Below are positions 27,000 to 64,000 of a DNA stretch of 64,000 bases, piece after piece. The notes under the pieces were generated by a model that was given only the letters and a program-made list of their open reading frames with translations, was not told where the DNA came from and did no database searches. The DNA comes from Escherichia coli (GTDB taxonomy: Bacteria; Pseudomonadota; Gammaproteobacteria; Enterobacterales; Enterobacteriaceae), in NCBI RefSeq assembly GCF_044324875.1, contig NZ_CP172185.1. One strand, 5' to 3'. The position numbers and the translations under genes were made by a program. Each line of letters opens with the position of its first letter. The stretch's first letter is position 1.

Positions 27000-27072
27000 T
27001 TTGACGAGGGCGCGTAATTGCCCCAATCTCATATGATAATCGTTGCCAAAGGCCAACGAGCCAGAACATAAC

Positions 27073-27107
27073 CGTAGGCCGGACAGGGCGTTCACGCCGC
27101 ATCCGGC
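27073..27107. repeat. REP (repetitive extragenic palindromic) element
   Basis: cgtaggccggacagggcgttcacgccgcatccggc is the reverse complement of the canonical GCCGGATGCGGCGTGAACGCC...CCGGCCTACG REP motif; lies between yhdP and tldD. Confidence 0.85.
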
Positions 27108-27139
27108 AGCCGTAAAAAATCCTCTACTGCAGTAACTAA

Positions 27140-41421: not shown

Positions 41422-41515
41422 TGGCCTAAGTCCGAATCCAGCCTCTTTTCCTTCTCACTACAGCATTATTCTCTGTAAACGGTATTTTCCTCGCACTATA
41501 GAAAAGGATATCGCG

Positions 41516-42310
41516 ATGGGATTTTTTAATACATTGTTTAATAAGAAAGAATCATTAACGCTGTCGAATAAATGGGAATTCTTTATTACCACGGTGGAAG
41601 ATAATGTAACGGGCATACGTGTAGATATTGGCGCAATTGAGGACGAAAAATTTGATCGTCTTATCCACACATGGTTTTTACGTGTCCGTTATACTGACTG
41701 TTATGAAAACGGTTTTCCGCAACCTGATGAAACACAGCGTTTAAATCGTATTGAGGACTGGCTTGAGGCGCAGGGTAAAACACTACCGATCTGGCTAGTG
41801 GGTGTGGTTACGCAACAAGGTTCACGCGATTTTGTTTTCCAGTCAGAAAAAGACCTGGACTGGGAAAAGACATTGGATAAATTGTTGGCAGGTGGCCCGG
41901 AGCTCGCTTGCAGCTTTAATGAGAGTAAAAACGACCACGGAAATTACTACCGCCAGTTTTTGTATCCAACCAAATACGACTGGAACTGGATACACGATTC
42001 CCGAGTATGCCGCGGGTTACTGGAGCATGGTGACGATTTGACTCTCCCACGCACCATCGATTATTACGCGACATTGCCGACAGAAACTGCGGCCCACGCC
42101 TTTGTGGAGGACGTGACGAAATTGCCATATGGCATCACGCTGGTGAGCATTCGGATGAACGACCAACAACCGGAGTATATGGCGTCATTGATTAACACTG
42201 ATGCTCCGGAACAATGGCATATGACCGATATCACATGCCAGCTTACCGATTTGGCGGAAAAGCATGGAGGTAGTTTTGATGGCTGGGGCGCACCGATAGC
42301 AACGGCATAA
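41516..42310 (+). CDS. Hypothetical protein, 264 aa; putative DUF695 (N-terminal) + RraB-like (C-terminal) domains; not present at this locus in K-12 as I recall it
   Basis: Long ORF 41285..42310 in track; the upstream part overlaps rpsI and its terminator, so start set at first ATG after the terminator (41516), which has an AAGGA RBS 7 bp upstream. Translation MGFFNTLFNKKESLTLSNKWEFFITTVEDNVTGIRVDIGAIED...LTDLAEKHGGSFDGWGAPIATA. Domain call is from motif resemblance by memory, not from a search. Confidence 0.8.
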   Translation: MGFFNTLFNKKESLTLSNKWEFFITTVEDNVTGIRVDIGAIEDEKFDRLIHTWFLRVRYTDCYENGFPQPDETQRLNRIEDWLEAQGKTLPIWLVGVVTQQGSRDFVFQSEKDLDWEKTLDKLLAGGPELACSFNESKNDHGNYYRQFLYPTKYDWNWIHDSRVCRGLLEHGDDLTLPRTIDYYATLPTETAAHAFVEDVTKLPYGITLVSIRMNDQQPEYMASLINTDAPEQWHMTDITCQLTDLAEKHGGSFDGWGAPIATA

Positions 42311-42578
42311 AGGTTTAAAACAACATTCCCGGTGGGGACTAAGTCAAGCATTTCAGACTAAAGCGCATCTCTTTTTCCCCATTTCCGGCATCGACTCACC
42401 ACAAAGGTCGCAAAATCTGGTAAACTATCATCCAATTTTCTGCCCAAATGTCGGGTATTGCTCATTTTTTGTTTAATTTTCGAACAAAGAGAGTCGTTCC
42501 TTACTGGGTAACACAACTTCTGACTGGCCACCTGGTGGCTGGTAGCAGTAAAAATTCTGACTATACCTGGAGGTTTTC

Positions 42579-52134: not shown

Positions 52135-52317
52135 TATCTGTCCCTTTATATGGCGCTGCGTTGAATAATGGAATCAGCTATACGCCGGGCATCTACCGGT
52201 AACAATCCAGATGTGCGTATTACATTGGTTTTCTTCAGATTATGCGAGGCGCTTTCCAGTACGAAAGGAGAATTTCAGCGCCGACTCTTTTCTGAGGAGG
52301 CGGCGCTGGGACAGAGT

Positions 52318-53748
<1,431 letters not shown>

Positions 53749-56700: not shown

Positions 56701-58302
56701 GTAAATGATGCGTGGCTGACTGGAGAGCACGGCGAATGGGGTGTCGTCGCCCATCGAACCGACCGCTTCCTGACCGTTTTCGCCCAGCACGCGAATTACG
56801 GAGTCCAGCTCTTCCGCGCTGTAGTTAAACTGTTTCTGGTAGCTGGCAAGTGTGTCGTCGTCCAGTTCGCGGCTACCTACTTCTTCATCGGGCAGATCTT
56901 CAAACGGTACCAGTCGGCGGACGTTTTTCTCCATCCACTCTTTATATGGATGGCGGCTTTTCAGATCGTCATCGGTTTCTGCCGAGTGCAGAATACGCCC
57001 ACTGCGGGTGTCGATAACCATCAGTTCGCCTGGCCCGACGCGGCCTTTTTCGACCACTTCGTCAGGCTGGTAATCCCAGATACCGACTTCAGAGGCGCAG
57101 GTGATGAGCTTATCTTTGGTAATGACGTAGCGTGCCGGACGCAGACCGTTACGGTCGAGGTTACAGGCGGCAAAACGACCATCGGACATCACGATGCCCG
57201 CCGGGCCATCCCACGGCTCCATATGCATGGAGTTAAAGTCAAAGAAGGCACGCAGTTCCGGGTCCATATCCGGGTTGTTCTGCCAGGCGGGTGGCACTAA
57301 CAGGCGCATGGCACGGATGATATCCATCCCGCCTGCCAGCAGCAGTTCCAGCATGTTATCCATGGAACTGGAGTCAGAACCGGTTTCGTTGACGAACGGC
57401 GCGGCGTCGTGCAGGTCAGGGATCAGCGGCGTCTGGAATTTATAGGTACGTGCACGCGCCCATTGGCGGTTACCGGTGATGGTGTTGATTTCACCGTTAT
57501 GCGCCAGATAGCGGAACGGCTGCGCCAGCGGCCAGCGCGGTACGGTGTTAGTGGAGAAGCGCTGGTGGAACAGGCAGATGGCCGATTCCAGACGCAGGTC
57601 CGCGAGGTCCAGGTAGAAGCGCGGCAGATCCGCCGGCATACACAGACCTTTATAGATGTTCACCAGATTCGACAGGCTACAGACGTAGAAGTCTTTGTCG
57701 GCTTCGAGACGCTTTTCAATGCGGCGGCGGGCGATAAACAGACGGCGCTCCATATCGCGCGGACGCCAGCCTGCCGGGGCGTTCACAAAAATTTGCTCAA
57801 TGCGTGGCAGAGAGGAGAGGGCGATTTCACCCAGCACGCCTTCGTTAGTGGGGACATCACGCCAGCCCACAATCGACAACGTTTCGCGTTGCAGCTCTTC
57901 TTCAACGATGCGGCGTGCGGCAGCGGCGAGTTCAGGATCTTTATTCAGGAAGAGCATCCCGACGGCGTAGTTTTTTGCTAAACGCCAGCCGCGCTCCTGC
58001 GCAACGATGCGAAAAAAGCGATCCGGTTTTTGTAACAGCAAGCCGCAACCGTCACCGGTTTTACCATCGGCGAGAATCGCGCCACGGTGCTGCATGCGGG
58101 CCAGTGCGTGTATTGCAGTACGCACTACCTTGTGGCTAGGTTCGCCTTCTATGTGGGCGATCAGGCCGAAACCACAGTTATCCCTCTCAAGGGATTTATC
58201 GTACAACATATCGTGAACCTCCCCCAGGCTCTGCGGGAACCCCACTTCCGAACCGCTGCGCACGGGCACAGAAAGAGCGTGGCGACGGGGTTTGCGTGTC
58301 AT
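53749..58302 (-). CDS. gltB: Glutamate synthase (NADPH) large subunit
   Basis: ORF track 53749..58317; start set at MTRKPRRHALSVPVRSGSEVGFPQSLGEVHDMLYDKSLERDNCGFGLIAH (1517 aa; Ntn Cys after propeptide). Confidence 0.96.
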   Translation of the reverse strand: MTRKPRRHALSVPVRSGSEVGFPQSLGEVHDMLYDKSLERDNCGFGLIAHIEGEPSHKVVRTAIHALARMQHRGAILADGKTGDGCGLLLQKPDRFFRIVAQERGWRLAKNYAVGMLFLNKDPELAAAARRIVEEELQRETLSIVGWRDVPTNEGVLGEIALSSLPRIEQIFVNAPAGWRPRDMERRLFIARRRIEKRLEADKDFYVCSLSNLVNIYKGLCMPADLPRFYLDLADLRLESAICLFHQRFSTNTVPRWPLAQPFRYLAHNGEINTITGNRQWARARTYKFQTPLIPDLHDAAPFVNETGSDSSSMDNMLELLLAGGMDIIRAMRLLVPPAWQNNPDMDPELRAFFDFNSMHMEPWDGPAGIVMSDGRFAACNLDRNGLRPARYVITKDKLITCASEVGIWDYQPDEVVEKGRVGPGELMVIDTRSGRILHSAETDDDLKSRHPYKEWMEKNVRRLVPFEDLPDEEVGSRELDDDTLASYQKQFNYSAEELDSVIRVLGENGQEAVGSMGDDTPFAVLSSQPRIIYDYFRQQFAQVTNPPIDPLREAHVMSLATSIGREMNVFCEAEGQAHRLSFKSPILLYSDFKQLTTMKEEHYRADTLDITFDVTKTTLEATVKELCDKAEKMVRSGTVLLVLSDRNIAKDRLPVPAPMAVGAIQTRLVDQSLRCDANIIVETASARDPHHFAVLLGFGATAIYPYLAYETLGRLVDTHAIAKDYRTVMLNYRNGINKGLYKIMSKMGISTIASYRCSKLFEAVGLHDDVVGLCFQGAVSRIGGASFEDFQQDLLNLSKRAWLARKPISQGGLLKYVHGGEYHAYNPDVVRTLQQAVQSGEYSDYQEYAKLVNERPATTLRDLLAITPGENAVNIADVEPASELFKRFDTAAMSIGALSPEAHEALAEAMNSIGGNSNSGEGGEDPARYGTNKVSRIKQVASGRFGVTPAYLVNADVIQIKVAQGAKPGEGGQLPGDKVTPYIAKLRYSVPGVTLISPPPHHDIYSIEDLAQLIFDLKQVNPKAMISVKLVSEPGVGTIATGVAKAYADLITIAGYDGGTGASPLSSVKYAGCPWELGLVETQQALVANGLRHKIRLQVDGGLKTGVDIIKAAILGAESFGFGTGPMVALGCKYLRICHLNNCATGVATQDDKLRKNHYHGLPFKVTNYFEFIARETRELMAQLGVTRLVDLIGRTDLLKELDGFTAKQQKLALSKLLETAEPHAGKALYCTENNPPFDNGLLNAQLLQQAKPFVDERQSKTFWFDIRNTDRSVGASLSGYIAQTHGDQGLAADPIKAYFNGTAGQSFGVWNAGGVELYLTGDANDYVGKGMAGGLIAIRPPVGSAFRSHEASIIGNTCLYGATGGRLYAAGRAGERFGVRNSGAITVVEGIGDNGCEYMTGGIVCILGKTGVNFGAGMTGGFAYVLDESGDFRKRVNPELVEVLSVDDLAIHEEHLRGLITEHVQHTGSQRGEEILANWSTFATKFALVKPKSSDVKALLGHRSRSAAELRVQAQ

Positions 58303-58883
58303 ACGCGCGCCTCGCATTCGCCCCCTTGTTGTCCTTTTCGCATCGGTTAATACGGTGAAGAGGGGATCTCAATTACTGCATAAATATGATGAGCAGGCTG
58401 CTCATCCAGAAAGCTTCCAGCGGATTTCCAACTTATCGGGAAAGCTGATACAGGTCAAATGGCAAGCTTATTGGTACAGAAATGTGCTTTAGCGCAAAAT
58501 TCTTTATTAATTGGCTGAAATTAAAATAGATTTTCTATTTAAGGCTAAAAGGGAAGTCGTTAGAGAAACATCCAATTCCTGACTGTCATAAAGGCGTGTT
58601 AACCCTTATCCTGCCTTGAACTGACGAGAAAACCAGCATTTTATACTGCCTTAATTGGTAATGACGTTTCATGCTACTGTTTTTGCCTAAAATCCATAAG
58701 GAGATAAAAAAATCTGACACAAGATAAGCAAAAATGATTTATGTGATCATGCATGAAATTTCGGTAATTTTGATTGATTATGCAGTTGATAAAAGCGGGC
58801 CGGGACGATTGATCCAGGTCATCGCCGAATTGAGCTAAAAATGGCAGGCTTTGGCCTCTTTTCAAGGCGCGGTCTATCAGATT

Positions 58884-59813
58884 ATGCAGTTACAGAAATT
58901 AGTCAATATGTTTGGTGGTGATCTCACCCGTCGTTATGGGCAAAAGGTGCATAAGCTGACGCTGCACGGCGGTTTTAGCTGCCCTAACCGTGACGGTACC
59001 ATCGGGCGTGGTGGCTGCACATTCTGTAATGTTGCCTCGTTTGCCGATGAAGCGCAGCAACATCGTTCCATTGCCGAACAACTGGCGCACCAGGCGAATT
59101 TAGTTAACCGCGCTAAACGCTATCTGGCCTACTTTCAGGCGTATACCAGCACCTTTGCGGAAGTTCAGGTGCTGCGTTCTATGTATCAGCAGGCGGTGAG
59201 CCAGGCCAATATTGTCGGTTTGTGTGTTGGTACCCGCCCGGACTGCGTGCCGGATGCAGTGCTGGATCTGCTTTGTGAATATAAAGACCAGGGCTACGAA
59301 GTGTGGCTGGAGCTGGGGCTACAAACCGCCCACGACAAAACGCTACATCGCATCAACCGCGGCCATGATTTTGCCTGTTATCAGCGTACAACCCAGCTGG
59401 CACGTCAGCGCGGGCTGAAGGTGTGTTCCCACTTAATTGTCGGCCTGCCTGGCGAAGGGCAGGCTGAATGTTTGCAAACGCTGGAGCGAGTGGTTGAAAC
59501 CGGCGTGGACGGCATAAAGCTGCATCCGCTGCATATTGTGAAAGGCAGCATTATGGCGAAAGCCTGGGAAGCGGGGCGTTTGAACGGTATTGAACTGGAG
59601 GATTACACGCTCACTGCCGGAGAAATGATTCGCCATACGCCACCGGAAGTGATCTACCACCGCATTTCCGCCAGCGCCCGTCGCCCGACGTTGCTTGCTC
59701 CGCTGTGGTGCGAAAATCGATGGACGGGAATGGTCGAGCTGGATCGTTATCTGAATGAACATGGCGTACAGGGATCGGCGCTGGGACGTCCGTGGCTACC
59801 TCCAACGGCGTAG
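58884..59813 (+). CDS. yhcC: Radical SAM family protein YhcC
   Basis: ORF track 58851..59813; start set at MQLQKLVNMFGGDLTRRYGQKVHKLTLHGGFSCPNRDGTIGRGGCTFCN (309 aa; Cys-rich radical-SAM-like motif). Confidence 0.88.
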   Translation: MQLQKLVNMFGGDLTRRYGQKVHKLTLHGGFSCPNRDGTIGRGGCTFCNVASFADEAQQHRSIAEQLAHQANLVNRAKRYLAYFQAYTSTFAEVQVLRSMYQQAVSQANIVGLCVGTRPDCVPDAVLDLLCEYKDQGYEVWLELGLQTAHDKTLHRINRGHDFACYQRTTQLARQRGLKVCSHLIVGLPGEGQAECLQTLERVVETGVDGIKLHPLHIVKGSIMAKAWEAGRLNGIELEDYTLTAGEMIRHTPPEVIYHRISASARRPTLLAPLWCENRWTGMVELDRYLNEHGVQGSALGRPWLPPTA

Positions 59814-59908
59814 GCCATTGAGGGGAATTCCGCATTTCTCACACAATTTATAACGTAACTGTCAGAATTGGGTATTATTGGGGCAGGTTGTCGTGAAGGA
59901 ATTCCCTA

Positions 59909-62245
59909 ATGAAGCAAATTCGTCTGCTGGCGCAGTATTATGTTGACCTGATGATGAAGTTAGGTCTGGTGCGCTTCTCAATGTTGCTGGCGCTGGCCCT
60001 CGTCGTTCTTGCCATTGTGGTACAAATGGCGGTAACCATGGTGCTGCATGGTCAGGTCGAAAGCATTGATGTTATTCGTTCTATCTTCTTTGGTTTGCTG
60101 ATTACGCCGTGGGCGGTCTACTTTCTATCGGTGGTCGTCGAGCAACTGGAGGAGTCACGGCAACGTCTGTCACGGCTGGTGCAAAAACTGGAGGAGATGC
60201 GCGAGCGCGATTTGAGCCTCAACGTTCAGTTAAAAGATAATATTGCCCAGCTAAATCAGGAAATCGCCGTTCGTGAAAAAGCGGAAGCAGAACTGCAGGA
60301 AACCTTCGGCCAACTGAAAATTGAAATCAAAGAGCGCGAAGAGACACAAATTCAGCTCGAGCAGCAATCCTCATTCTTACGTTCCTTCCTTGATGCTTCA
60401 CCCGACCTGGTTTTTTATCGTAACGAAGATAAAGAGTTTTCTGGCTGTAACCGCGCGATGGAGCTGCTGACCGGAAAAAGCGAAAAACAACTGGTTCACC
60501 TGAAACCTGCTGATGTTTACTCACCGGAAGCCGCTGCGAAAGTCATTGAAACTGATGAAAAAGTGTTCCGTCATAATGTGTCACTGACCTATGAGCAGTG
60601 GCTGGATTATCCCGACGGACGCAAAGCCTGCTTTGAAATTCGTAAAGTGCCGTACTACGACCGCGTGGGTAAACGTCACGGTTTGATGGGCTTTGGTCGC
60701 GACATTACCGAGCGTAAGCGGTATCAGGATGCGCTTGAACGGGCCAGCCGCGACAAAACGACGTTTATCTCCACCATCAGTCACGAATTGCGTACACCGC
60801 TGAATGGTATCGTCGGCCTGAGCCGCATTCTGCTGGATACCGAACTCACCGCCGAGCAGGAAAAATATCTCAAAACCATCCATGTTTCGGCCGTCACGCT
60901 CGGGAATATCTTCAACGATATTATCGACATGGATAAGATGGAACGGCGTAAGGTCCAGCTTGATAATCAGCCGGTTGATTTCACCAGCTTCCTTGCCGAT
61001 CTGGAAAATCTCTCCGCATTGCAGGCGCAACAAAAAGGATTGCGCTTTAATCTGGAGCCTACGCTGCCATTACCGCATCAGGTCATTACCGACGGGACGC
61101 GTTTGCGGCAGATCCTGTGGAATCTCATCAGTAACGCCGTCAAATTCACCCAGCAAGGCCAGGTTACCGTGCGCGTGCGCTACGATGAAGGCGATATGCT
61201 GCATTTTGAAGTGGAAGACTCTGGTATCGGCATTCCGCAGGATGAGCTGGATAAAATCTTTGCCATGTATTACCAGGTGAAAGACAGTCATGGCGGTAAA
61301 CCTGCCACCGGCACCGGTATTGGTCTGGCCGTTTCTCGTCGTCTGGCGAAAAATATGGGCGGCGATATTACGGTTACCAGCGAACAGGGCAAAGGTTCTA
61401 CCTTTACGTTGACGATCCACGCACCGTCGGTGGCTGAAGAGGTCGATGATGCGTTTGATGAAGACGATATGCCTTTACCGGCGCTGAATGTGCTGCTGGT
61501 GGAAGACATTGAACTGAACGTGATTGTCGCGCGTTCTGTGCTGGAAAAATTAGGTAACAGCGTTGATGTCGCCATGACCGGCAAGGCGGCGCTGGAGATG
61601 TTTAAACCGGGCGAATACGACCTGGTATTGCTGGATATTCAGTTGCCAGATATGACCGGGCTGGATATCTCTCGTGAACTGACGAAGCGTTATCCGCGCG
61701 AGGATTTACCGCCGCTGGTGGCCTTAACCGCTAACGTGCTGAAAGACAAGCAAGAGTACCTCAATGCTGGAATGGATGATGTGCTGAGTAAGCCGCTTTC
61801 TGTTCCGGCGCTAACCGCGATGATCAAGAAATTCTGGGATACCCAGGATGATGAGGAAAGTACGGTGACGACAGAAGAGAACAGTAAATCAGAAGCATTG
61901 CTCGATATTCCCATGCTGGAACAGTATCTCGAACTTGTAGGACCGAAGCTGATCACCGACGGGTTAGCGGTGTTTGAGAAGATGATGCCGGGCTATGTCA
62001 GCGTGCTGGAGTCGAATCTGACGGCGCAGGATAAAAAAGGCATTGTTGAGGAAGGACATAAAATTAAAGGTGCGGCGGGGTCAGTGGGGTTACGCCATCT
62101 GCAACAGCTGGGTCAGCAAATTCAGTCTCCTGACCTTCCCGCCTGGGAAGATAACGTCGGTGAATGGATTGAAGAGATGAAAGAAGAGTGGCGTCACGAC
62201 GTAGAAGTACTGAAAGCGTGGGTGGCAAAAGCCACTAAAAAATGA
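59909..62245 (+). CDS. arcB: Aerobic respiration control sensor kinase ArcB
   Basis: ORF track 59909..62245 (778 aa); two N-terminal TM segments, PAS, HisKA (STISHELRTPLNGI), receiver and HPt domains. Confidence 0.97.
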   Translation: MKQIRLLAQYYVDLMMKLGLVRFSMLLALALVVLAIVVQMAVTMVLHGQVESIDVIRSIFFGLLITPWAVYFLSVVVEQLEESRQRLSRLVQKLEEMRERDLSLNVQLKDNIAQLNQEIAVREKAEAELQETFGQLKIEIKEREETQIQLEQQSSFLRSFLDASPDLVFYRNEDKEFSGCNRAMELLTGKSEKQLVHLKPADVYSPEAAAKVIETDEKVFRHNVSLTYEQWLDYPDGRKACFEIRKVPYYDRVGKRHGLMGFGRDITERKRYQDALERASRDKTTFISTISHELRTPLNGIVGLSRILLDTELTAEQEKYLKTIHVSAVTLGNIFNDIIDMDKMERRKVQLDNQPVDFTSFLADLENLSALQAQQKGLRFNLEPTLPLPHQVITDGTRLRQILWNLISNAVKFTQQGQVTVRVRYDEGDMLHFEVEDSGIGIPQDELDKIFAMYYQVKDSHGGKPATGTGIGLAVSRRLAKNMGGDITVTSEQGKGSTFTLTIHAPSVAEEVDDAFDEDDMPLPALNVLLVEDIELNVIVARSVLEKLGNSVDVAMTGKAALEMFKPGEYDLVLLDIQLPDMTGLDISRELTKRYPREDLPPLVALTANVLKDKQEYLNAGMDDVLSKPLSVPALTAMIKKFWDTQDDEESTVTTEENSKSEALLDIPMLEQYLELVGPKLITDGLAVFEKMMPGYVSVLESNLTAQDKKGIVEEGHKIKGAAGSVGLRHLQQLGQQIQSPDLPAWEDNVGEWIEEMKEEWRHDVEVLKAWVAKATKK

Positions 62246-62357
62246 CCCCGGCTAGACCGGGGTGCGCGAATACTGCGCCAACACCAGGGAAATCTTGGCT
62301 GCGCCGTAAATTATTATGATGAGTTACAAGGGCACAGCACTGTTTTTCAGGCCGCAC
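62237..62357 (-). ncRNA. arcZ: ArcZ (SraH/RyhA) small regulatory RNA
   Basis: Reverse complement of 62237-62357 reads GTGCGGCCTGAAAAACAGTGCTGTGCCCTTGTAACTCATCATAATAATTTACGGCGCAGCCAAGATTTCCCTGGTGTTGGCGCAGTATTCGCGCACCCCGGTCTAGCCGGGGTCATTTTTT, which matches the ArcZ sequence as I recall it, including its terminator; 3' end overlaps the arcB stop codon. Confidence 0.88.
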
Positions 62358-62474
62358 GCAGTTAAGATAGCAAAACTTAAATGATTTGTTACATGAATCA
62401 GTTAAATGTGTGATGCGTAGCATTTTTATTAAAAAAATTAATGTGTTTCAGTCAATTGCGAAAGGATGATCACA

Positions 62475-63128
62475 ATGAAGAAAATTGGCGTAATTCTGAG
62501 CGGATGCGGCGTCTATGACGGTTCTGAAATTCATGAAGCGGTGTTGACGTTGTTAGCTATTTCACGCAGCGGTGCACAGGCGGTCTGCTTTGCACCGGAT
62601 AAACAGCAGGTTGATGTTATCAACCATTTAACGGGCGAAGCGATGACGGAAACGCGCAATGTGCTGATTGAAGCGGCACGAATAACGCGCGGTGAAATCC
62701 GTCCTCTGGCCCAGGCCGATGCCGCTGAACTGGATGCGTTGATTGTGCCGGGGGGGTTTGGCGCGGCGAAGAATTTAAGCAATTTTGCCAGTCTTGGTCG
62801 CGAATGCACCGTTGACCGTGAATTAAAGGCGCTGGCACAAGCGATGCATCAGGCCGGAAAACCGCTTGGTTTTATGTGTATTGCCCCGGCGATGCTGCCG
62901 AAAATTTTCGATTTCCCGCTGCGTTTGACCATCGGTACTGATATCGATACCGCAGAAGTGCTGGAAGAGATGGGTGCGGAGCATGTGCCGTGTCCTGTCG
63001 ATGATATCGTGGTTGATGAAGACAACAAGATTGTCACCACCCCGGCATATATGCTGGCGCAGAACCTTGCAGAAGCGGCGAGCGGCATTGATAAGCTGGT
63101 TTCCCGCGTGCTGGTCCTGGCGGAATGA
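62475..63128 (+). CDS. elbB: Glyoxalase/DJ-1-like protein ElbB (YhbL)
   Basis: ORF track 62466..63128; start set at [23 protein letters not shown] (217 aa). Confidence 0.9.
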
Positions 63129-63853
63129 GTAAAAGCCGCTTAACGGTGTTTAGTTTCATTCGCCGTTTTCTTTTGCGGTTAATGGTTGTCCTCGCCGTTT
63201 TTTGGGGCGGGGGCATCGCGTTGTTTAGCGTTGCGCCTGTTCCTTTCTCAGCGGTAATGGTCGAGCGACAGGTCAGCGCCTGGCTGCATGGCAATTTTCG
63301 TTACGTGGCACATTCTGACTGGGTCAGTATGGATCAAATCTCGCCGTGGATGGGACTGGCGGTGATTGCCGCAGAAGATCAGACATTTCCTGAGCACTGG
63401 GGCTTTGATGTCGCTTCCATTGAGAAAGCCCTGGCGCACAACGAGCGCAATGAAAACCGTATTCGCGGTGCTTCAACGATTTCTCAGCAGACGGCCAAAA
63501 ATCTCTTTTTATGGGATGGGCGTAGCTGGGTTCGAAAAGGGCTGGAAGCTGGATTAACGCTGGGGATAGAAACTGTCTGGAGCAAAAAGCGTATCCTGAC
63601 GGTTTACCTGAATATCGCCGAATTTGGCGACGGTGTGTTTGGCGTCGAAGCTGCGGCACAACGTTATTTCCACAAACCCGCGAGCAAACTTACCCGCTCG
63701 GAAGCTGCATTACTGGCAGCTGTATTACCTAATCCACTTCGTTTCAAAGTCTCCGCGCCATCGGGCTACGTGCGTGGCCGTCAGGCGTGGATTTTACGGC
63801 AGATGTATCAGTTAGGCGGTGAGTCGTTTATGCAACAGCACCAGCTTGATTAA
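63125..63853 (+). CDS. mtgA: Monofunctional biosynthetic peptidoglycan transglycosylase
   Basis: ORF track 63125..63853 (242 aa); N-terminal TM, glycosyltransferase-51 motifs ([23 protein letters not shown]); overlaps elbB stop by 4 nt. Confidence 0.95.
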
Positions 63854-64000
63854 GCTTCGCGCGAAGTGAGGGCCAGCGTTTTGCTCTCACGAGGTTGCAG
63901 ATCTTTCTGCAGGGCAATAGCCAGCGCCGGTTGGGCGATAAATCGTTTCCATAACCGCTCTTGCTTACGCAGACAACACCACTTCGACCAGGTCGCCAGT
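63850..64000 (-). CDS. yrbL: 3' end of a convergent gene, probably yrbL (runs off window end)
   Basis: Minus-strand frame open from window end to TAA at 63852-63850 (hand translation ...[27 protein letters not shown]); K-12 gene order places yrbL convergent to mtgA. I do not recall the YrbL sequence itself. Confidence 0.5.

Follow-up and report, generated by a model that had tools for sequence, protein, structure and literature searches.

Does the minus strand of the arcB-elbB region of this Escherichia coli strain encode a regulatory RNA, and if so, how does that RNA relate to the convergent arcB gene? A sequence-only reading had placed the 121-nt small RNA ArcZ here. Nucleotides 62237-62357 of the window (the whole 64,000-nucleotide stretch of DNA that was analysed) read, on the minus strand, GTGCGGCCTGAAAAACAGTGCTGTGCCCTTGTAACTCATCATAATAATTTACGGCGCAGCCAAGATTTCCCTGGTGTTGGCGCAGTATTCGCGCACCCCGGTCTAGCCGGGGTCATTTTTT, beginning with GTGCGGCCTGAAAAACAG and ending with CCCCGGTCTAGCCGGGGTCATTTTTT. 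The Rfam covariance model for ArcZ (RF00081) matches the minus strand from 62357 to 62250 with 120.8 bits (E = 3.8e-28), nearly twice the gathering score of 66 that sets the threshold for membership, and the match is full-length and untruncated (model positions 1-106 of 106); the reading thereby holds up against the covariance-model search that it had proposed as its own test. When all Rfam families were scanned, ArcZ was the single family above threshold in the whole 64-kb window, and an all-Rfam scan of 58000-64000 returned one significant match, again ArcZ. In addition, the sequence is identical at 121/121 nt to arcZ of K-12 MG1655 (b4450; NC_000913.3 3350577-3350697), so that the coordinates proposed earlier are exactly those of the annotated K-12 gene, and the flanking genes arcB and elbB are the same as in K-12. 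In a 301-nt alignment to K-12, arcZ is unchanged; one substitution lies in the promoter region at 62420 (about -63) and one inside arcB. The folding energy of the 121-nt RNA is -42.3 kcal/mol, with z = -2.7 relative to shuffled sequences. The Rfam model reaches no farther than 62250; the 3′ end was therefore placed at 62237 by where the T-run ends and by the annotation of K-12, and, more generally, both transcript ends are taken from K-12.

We consider it nearly certain that 62237-62357 on the minus strand is ArcZ, the Hfq-dependent, trans-acting small RNA of the Enterobacterales, with the mechanism described for it in reviews. ArcZ became known in 2001, and in this field the way it is arranged with arcB counts as textbook knowledge. 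The copy described here is such a textbook small RNA, at its canonical location; because it is identical to the K-12 copy and sits in the usual position, tail-to-tail with arcB, the finding is correct but ordinary, and as a discovery it matters little. Its practical value is as an annotation check, as the standard RefSeq annotation leaves arcZ out in thousands of E. coli genomes. The sequence-only reading had warned that annotation based on open reading frames (ORFs) alone would miss the gene, and indeed, for other E. coli strains, the RefSeq PGAP records listed show only arcB and elbB at this position; the curated K-12 record does hold an arcZ ncRNA feature. The Rfam gathering score for ArcZ is itself poorly sensitive, missing most homologues outside the Enterobacteriaceae. 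Because RefSeq leaves the gene unannotated and the Rfam gathering score misses homologues, pipelines that use ORFs only or thresholds only under-report ArcZ. This RNA touches about 10% of the transcriptome.

The mechanical ORF list does offer another way to read this strand, as a small protein gene: a 62-codon ORF with an ATG start (62235..62423, 62 aa, running from 62423 to 62235 on the minus strand) spans the arcZ promoter and ArcZ. However, no Shine-Dalgarno sequence stands before its ATG, which is preceded by TTTTTTTAATAAAA, and the ORF would begin upstream of the mapped transcription start. Conservation across it is at the nucleotide level, with third codon positions included. In most listed homologues from other genera, the same frame has stops upstream of the seed, with 2-26 open codons, and it also stops inside the conserved part, in Dickeya (GVGA-stop-FAHPG) and in Kosakonia and Phytobacter (HPG-stop-SGVIF). 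The 62-aa ORF is thus ruled out as a coding gene on comparative grounds and effectively refuted; we give a protein-coding explanation of this locus practically no chance of being right.

Anatomy and conservation of the RNA

The elements of ArcZ and its surroundings are collected in Table 1. The site GA↓UUU stands exactly 56 nt from the ArcZ 3′ end, so that the last 56 nt open with UUUCCCUGG; it fits the R-N↓W-U-U consensus given for RNase E processing (PMC11331407) and is the predicted cleavage site. The seed core that follows, CCCUGGUGUUGGCGCA, is unique in the window (one match at up to 2 mismatches, with 0.02 expected), and the same sequence is named in the literature as the conserved sequence past the cleavage site (PMC11331407). 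Upstream, 8 pairs of the 5′ stem-loop align to the consensus structure of Rfam. At the 3′ end, the terminator scan found a Rho-independent terminator with a U-tail; it scored the stem as 62263..62245, with 8 pairs, of which 6 are G-C, and a 3-nt loop (stem-loop ACCCCGGTCTAGCCGGGGT), followed by the tail CATTTTTTAG with its run of six U.

Table 1. Features of the arcZ locus (positions are those of the window).
Feature	Position	Strand	Basis or remark
arcB, 778 aa sensor kinase, convergent partner	59909..62245	+	ORF list; arcB in RefSeq records
ArcZ 3′ tail UCAUUUUUU, the 9-nt overlap with arcB	62237..62245	-	antisense of AAA AAA TGA (Lys-Lys-stop)
arcZ primary transcript, 121 nt	62237..62357	-	TSS 62357, 3′ end 62237; Rfam RF00081, identity to K-12 b4450
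56-nt processed (active) form UUUCCCUGGUGUUGGCGCAGUAUUCGCGCACCCCGGUCUAGCCGGGGUCAUUUUUU	62237..62292	-	last 56 nt; predicted RNase E site GA↓UUU between 62293 and 62292
Terminator stem-loop CCCCGG-UCUAG-CCGGGG	62246..62262	-	terminator scan, MFE fold
Small hairpin GCGC-AGUAUUC-GCGC, inside the processed form	62264..62279	-	RNAalifold, Rfam consensus structure
Conserved seed core CCCUGGUGUUGGCGCA	62274..62289	-	directly after the RNase E consensus site GA↓UUU
5′ stem-loop, arms GCUGUGCC / GGCGCAGC	62294..62341	-	ends about 5 nt before the cleavage site
Divergent arcZ-elbB intergenic region with the putative arcZ promoter	62358..62474	.	promoter predicted
elbB	62475-63128	+	ORF list, RefSeq records

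The terminator hairpin lies 1 nt past the arcB stop codon and plus-strand RNA forms it too, and thus it could in principle be nothing more than the terminator or 3′-UTR of arcB, with no separate RNA gene on the minus strand. On the plus strand, however, the stem is followed by UGCGCG and not by a U-tract, and the scan places terminator-like sites on the minus strand only. Such a reading also fails to account for another 100 nt of match to the ArcZ covariance model and for the seed that is invariant across the Enterobacterales. Furthermore, the seed, the hairpin and the terminator persist in those listed species in which the arcB stop lies 7-25 nt from the stem. We regard an arcB 3′ element without ArcZ as extremely improbable, and treat the hairpin as the terminator of ArcZ.

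Comparison across genomes shows how widely this RNA is kept. Within the species, 5416 of 5426 complete E. coli genomes carry the 121-nt arcZ, 5395 of them with at least 99% identity. Searching a single genome of each species for the 16-nt seed gave at least 120 loci; among the matches listed, 57 carry an ArcZ-like continuation (GCGCACCCC, the hairpin and a T-run) and all 57 are from Enterobacterales, while the other listed seed loci are chance matches with unrelated flanks. The same seed matched viral contigs at 22 places, none of which had ArcZ-like flanks. As a separate observation, one Mixta sp. carries a second element resembling the ArcZ 3′ domain, located beside IS1; a plasmid search with this element gave no match.

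Because the seed was the search pattern, it is invariant by construction in these homologues, and the comparative set was also filtered on GCGC[AG]CCC plus a T-run, so that only features outside the seed and the filter inform on conservation independently. The flanks outside the search pattern (TTT upstream and GCGCACCCC downstream of the seed) are invariant or nearly so in the 55 listed homologues. When these 55 sequences are aligned, hardly any position changes in the 3′ half, which runs from the UUU ahead of the seed through the U-tail; the 5′ half is variable.

RNAalifold with the 55 sequences recovers the GCGC/GCGC hairpin as 4 invariant pairs, which are for that reason uninformative as to covariation. 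It also recovers the terminator, in which two pairs show compensatory change from G-C to A-U in 12-13 of the 55 listed homologues. The 5′ stem was not recovered by RNAalifold from the MAFFT alignment of the 55 sequences; because the 5′ halves align poorly, the stem is lost in the alignment, and therefore we folded the sequences one by one. In these individual folds, a hairpin of at least 6 bp with its 3′ arm ending within 8 nt of the cleavage site is present in 51 of the 55 listed homologues, compared with 335 of 1100 shuffled sequences (30%). The sequences of the arms diverge: they are GCUGUGCC/GGCGCAGC in Escherichia, AACCUGC/GCAGGUU in Yersinia and Serratia, and UUUACUCGCC/GGCGAGUAAA in Photorhabdus. 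The 5′ hairpin is thus kept structurally despite its diverging sequence.

The overlap with arcB

Examination of the locus shows that arcB on the plus strand and arcZ on the minus strand converge, with their 3′ ends sharing 9 nt. The sequence-only reading had the arrangement down as a known one, and K-12 does have the same 9-nt overlap: its annotated arcB ends at 3350689 and the overlap with arcZ covers 3350689-3350697. That reading also had the terminator overlapping the arcB stop codon, a TGA at 62243-62245, and here the description must be adjusted. The G+C stem (62246-62262) abuts the stop codon, and it is the tail (62237-62245) that overlaps it. Specifically, a 3-nt spacer, UCA, which is the antisense of the TGA stop, separates the stem from the U6 run at 62237-62242; because this spacer intervenes, the spacer and the U-tract overlap arcB and the stem does not (leaving an optional closing A-U pair, 62263/62245, uncounted). 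The further claim that the two transcripts are antisense at their 3′ ends holds, as demonstrated, for the 9 nt of coding overlap alone; at least these 9 nt (62237-62245) are common to ArcZ and the arcB coding sequence, which makes the two a cis-antisense pair.

The arrangement is widespread, with variations. By tblastn, the arcB C-terminus is convergent with and immediately downstream of arcZ in all 54 of the listed loci that have enough flanking DNA. In 42 of these 54 (the window is counted among them), arcB ends in ...KK-stop with the stop directly against the terminator stem, with an overlap of 9-11 nt that varies with T-run length. In about 10 of the 54 listed loci, the arcB stop lies 7-25 nt farther out and the overlap is small or absent; loci of this kind are found in Pantoea, Mixta, Tatumella, Rosenbergiella, Hafnia and Superficieibacter. 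These counts agree with the published statement that the 3′ ends of arcB and arcZ 'usually' overlap by ten bases, with exceptions (PMC11331407).

Given this overlap, one could ask if ArcZ acts mainly in cis, as an arcB antisense RNA whose tail-to-tail pairing is its primary function. The 9-nt overlap with the arcB coding sequence is consistent with this idea, as is the plus strand downstream: the terminator scan found no plus-strand terminator-like site between arcB and elbB (and folding of the plus strand gave none that was convincing), and because no such terminator intervenes, an arcB RNA that reads through could be fully complementary to ArcZ. Against this, the seed is unchanged in the roughly 10 of 54 listed species in which arcB ends beyond the stem and little or no overlap is left, and in Pectobacterium the two genes do not overlap (PMC11331407). 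In addition, the invariant part of ArcZ is the single-stranded seed, which pairs with unlinked targets, many of them validated experimentally as trans targets in the literature. A mainly cis-acting ArcZ is therefore very unlikely, and any cis effect is best taken to come on top of trans regulation, not to replace it.

ArcZ as a trans regulator with such an addition leaves room for a more specific proposal, in which the overlap imposes a sequence constraint in both directions: the U-tail that ArcZ needs for Hfq would fix the Lys-Lys-stop of ArcB, and arcB mRNA that reads through would serve as a full-length antisense sponge for ArcZ. The 42 of 54 listed species whose arcB ends in ...KK-stop exactly at the stem speak for a two-way constraint; the UCA or UUA spacer is retained in 11 of the 12 listed lineages whose arcB stops elsewhere. 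It has been speculated that arcB mRNA destabilises ArcZ as an antisense RNA (PMC11331407; PMC3937726), and in the literature a sponge role of arcB mRNA is likewise only speculation. We put the proposal forward tentatively and rather doubt it. If the sponge idea were true, the Arc feedback loop would depend on how the 3′ end of arcB is formed.

Expression and targets

For the identity, anatomy, conservation, structure and synteny of ArcZ we rely on the results given here, and for its Hfq/RNase E processing, its targets and the Arc feedback on the literature. In the resulting scheme, a sigma-70-type promoter between arcZ and elbB would drive transcription of arcZ on the minus strand, starting at 62357. 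The 120 nt upstream of arcZ differ from K-12 by 1 substitution. As read from the sequence, the putative promoter has a -10 element TATCTT (62364-62369) and a -35 element GTAACA (62387-62392) with a 17-bp spacer; the hexamers match the consensus at 8 of 12 positions, which is below the cut-off of the promoter scan, and the TATCTTA block is conserved among Enterobacteriaceae homologues.

Transcription would stop at the intrinsic terminator, where the final two Lys codons of arcB and its stop codon serve as the template for the U-tail. Hfq would then bind the 121-nt primary transcript and RNase E would cut it at GA↓UUU, releasing a stable 56-nt 3′ fragment (62292-62237) with the seed UUUCCCUGGUGUUGGCGCA single-stranded. 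Hfq binding and processing by RNase E at R-N↓W-U-U to an active 56-nt 3′ form have been described for ArcZ (PMC11331407), and in K-12, where the sequence is identical, the ~121-nt and ~56-nt species, the binding to Hfq and the dependence on RNase E are known (PMC11331407).

The seed is expected to pair with many mRNAs. Its pairing would open the inhibitory hairpin of the rpoS leader and block Rho, thereby activating rpoS, whereas flhDC, mutS, tpx, sdaC and others would be repressed, either because the ribosome-binding site is covered or because RNase E is recruited; published trans targets include rpoS, flhDC, mutS and others, with mutual repression between ArcZ and arcB (PMC11331407). Using RNAduplex with the ArcZ seed and the K-12 rpoS leader, the best site was -88..-52, overlapping the published -91..-63. 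The energy of this duplex was -23.0 kcal/mol, compared with a mean of -24.0 for shuffled seeds, and 300 of 500 shuffles were at least as good; because the energy is no better than that of shuffled seeds, the duplex is not usable as evidence for pairing. Separately, Serratia oryzae has a 23-nt perfect complement of the ArcZ seed at the ribosome-binding site of an ADP-ribosylglycohydrolase gene.

Under anaerobiosis, ArcB/ArcA would keep arcZ transcription low, and ArcZ would lower arcB mRNA, closing a feedback loop to which the cis overlap may contribute; that ArcZ lowers or destabilises arcB mRNA has been reported (PMC11331407; cited in PMC3937726). As to how ArcA might act, a search with the ArcA box consensus gave only two weak 10/15 matches, at 62377-62391 (-20..-34) and 62397-62411 (-40..-54), where 0.15 would be expected in DNA of this length. 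The arcZ promoter region showed no TGTTA-N6-TGTTA repeat in direct orientation at 8/10 or better. One review states that ArcA-P binds the arcZ promoter (PMC11331407). Park et al., using ChIP, reported no ArcA site upstream of arcZ, and the two 10/15 matches of our scan agree with that study (PMC3798270). Direct binding of ArcA at arcZ is uncertain.

Comparison with known systems

Everything tested agrees with ArcZ (SraH/RyhA; RF00081, K-12 b4450): the 121/121 identity, the promoter region, the terminator, the 9-nt overlap and elbB as neighbour. Inside the RNA nothing differs from K-12 arcZ, although the host is another strain. Around it, the window and K-12 share about 97-98.5% identity; this strain has a rare extra DUF695/RraB-domain gene, inserted between rpsI and sspA, and lacks gltF-yhcADEF.

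Among other small RNAs, DsrA and RprA resemble ArcZ in that they pair with the rpoS leader at a point upstream of its inhibitory hairpin, require Hfq and counter Rho (PMC11331407, PMC3937726). They differ from it in that their sequences are unrelated, they are encoded elsewhere and their processing does not yield a 3′ fragment as that of ArcZ does; furthermore, neither is linked to or overlaps the gene of its own regulator. A different likeness is found with MicL and the 3′-UTR-derived CpxQ, in which RNase E also frees an active 3′ fragment that ends at an Hfq-bound intrinsic terminator (PMC11331407). In contrast to 3′-UTR-derived small RNAs, which are the 3′-UTR of a co-directional gene and are cut from its mRNA, ArcZ is transcribed from a promoter of its own and overlaps a convergent gene at its 3′ end.

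Score threshold and terminator spacer among ArcZ homologues

Canonical ArcZ homologues, in which arcB is convergent and lies directly downstream, are mostly passed over by the Rfam ArcZ model RF00081. At its gathering score of 66 bits, the model calls ArcZ in 3 of the 18 homologues tested (loci from a 16-nt seed scan of one genome per species, among them L005, L006, L012, L020, L021, L029, L046, L056, L057, L073, L087, L099, L121, L122 and L068). The three are those of E. albertii (113 bits), Pluralibacter (69 bits) and Pantoea stewartii (67.5 bits); those of Yersinia, Photorhabdus, Xenorhabdus, Dickeya, Providencia, Proteus, Edwardsiella, Hafnia and others do not reach the threshold. In several of these sub-threshold genera, ArcZ has already been the subject of experimental work.

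The three nucleotides that separate the terminator stem from its U-tract are UCA in 11 of the 12 lineages in which the arcB stop codon lies elsewhere (L011, L017, L031, L036, L063, L068, L073, L080, L087, L111 and L122). Retention of this spacer hints that the RNA itself imposes a constraint, or that arcB has recently come to end elsewhere.

Copy number and sites outside the arcB locus

Among the 5426 complete E. coli genomes searched, one carries the arcZ sequence twice, with one copy plasmid-borne, and 10 gave no match.

The genome of Mixta sp. Marseille-Q2659 holds a canonical arcB-linked arcZ (L087) and also a short second ArcZ-like element, AAATTCCCTGGTGTTGGCGCAGATGCGCACCCCGCATTACGCGGGTTTTTTTT, that contains the seed, the GCGC hairpin and a terminator of its own. 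This element directly follows an IS1 copy and lies upstream of a zinc-type dehydrogenase gene, with arcB not adjacent; a search for a promoter match found none, and a plasmid search with the element returned no match. It may be a paralogue of the ArcZ 3′ domain.

A 23-nt site in Serratia oryzae J11-6 is the perfect complement of that genome's own ArcZ seed region (ACAATTTCCCTGGTGTTGGCGCA). It lies at about −6 to −28 from the start codon of a minus-strand gene assigned to the ADP-ribosylglycohydrolases (PF03747, E = 4e-64). It looks like a candidate ArcZ target over the ribosome-binding site of that gene rather than a second arcZ.

Differences from K-12 in the window

Coordinates of the elements discussed (K-12, MG1655, NC_000913.3)
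Feature	Sequence	Position	Strand	K-12 counterpart
Second ArcZ-like element	Mixta L086	1742-1793	+	
ArcZ seed complement	S. oryzae L050	1255-1277		
tldD-yhdP intergenic region	window	27050-27113		3392133-3392344 (~210 bp)
rpsI-sspA interval	window	41442-42335		absent (~0.85 kb extra)
DUF695/RraB-domain ORF, 264 aa	window	41516-42310	+	
Replacement, ~130 bp	window	52189-52318		3360616-3367772 (7.1 kb)

In the tldD-yhdP intergenic region, the K-12 segment is not colinear with the window, which carries a small indel or rearrangement there. The 7.1 kb replaced farther along contains gltF, yhcA, yhcD, yhcE::IS5 and yhcF in K-12; both gltF and the yhc fimbrial cluster are therefore missing from this strain. 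The ORF between rpsI and sspA encodes a protein with domains PF05117 (DUF695) and PF06877 (RraB, regulator of ribonuclease activity B). It is rare: among the 5426 complete genomes of E. coli, just 48 have a full-length match, IAI39 and CE10 being examples.
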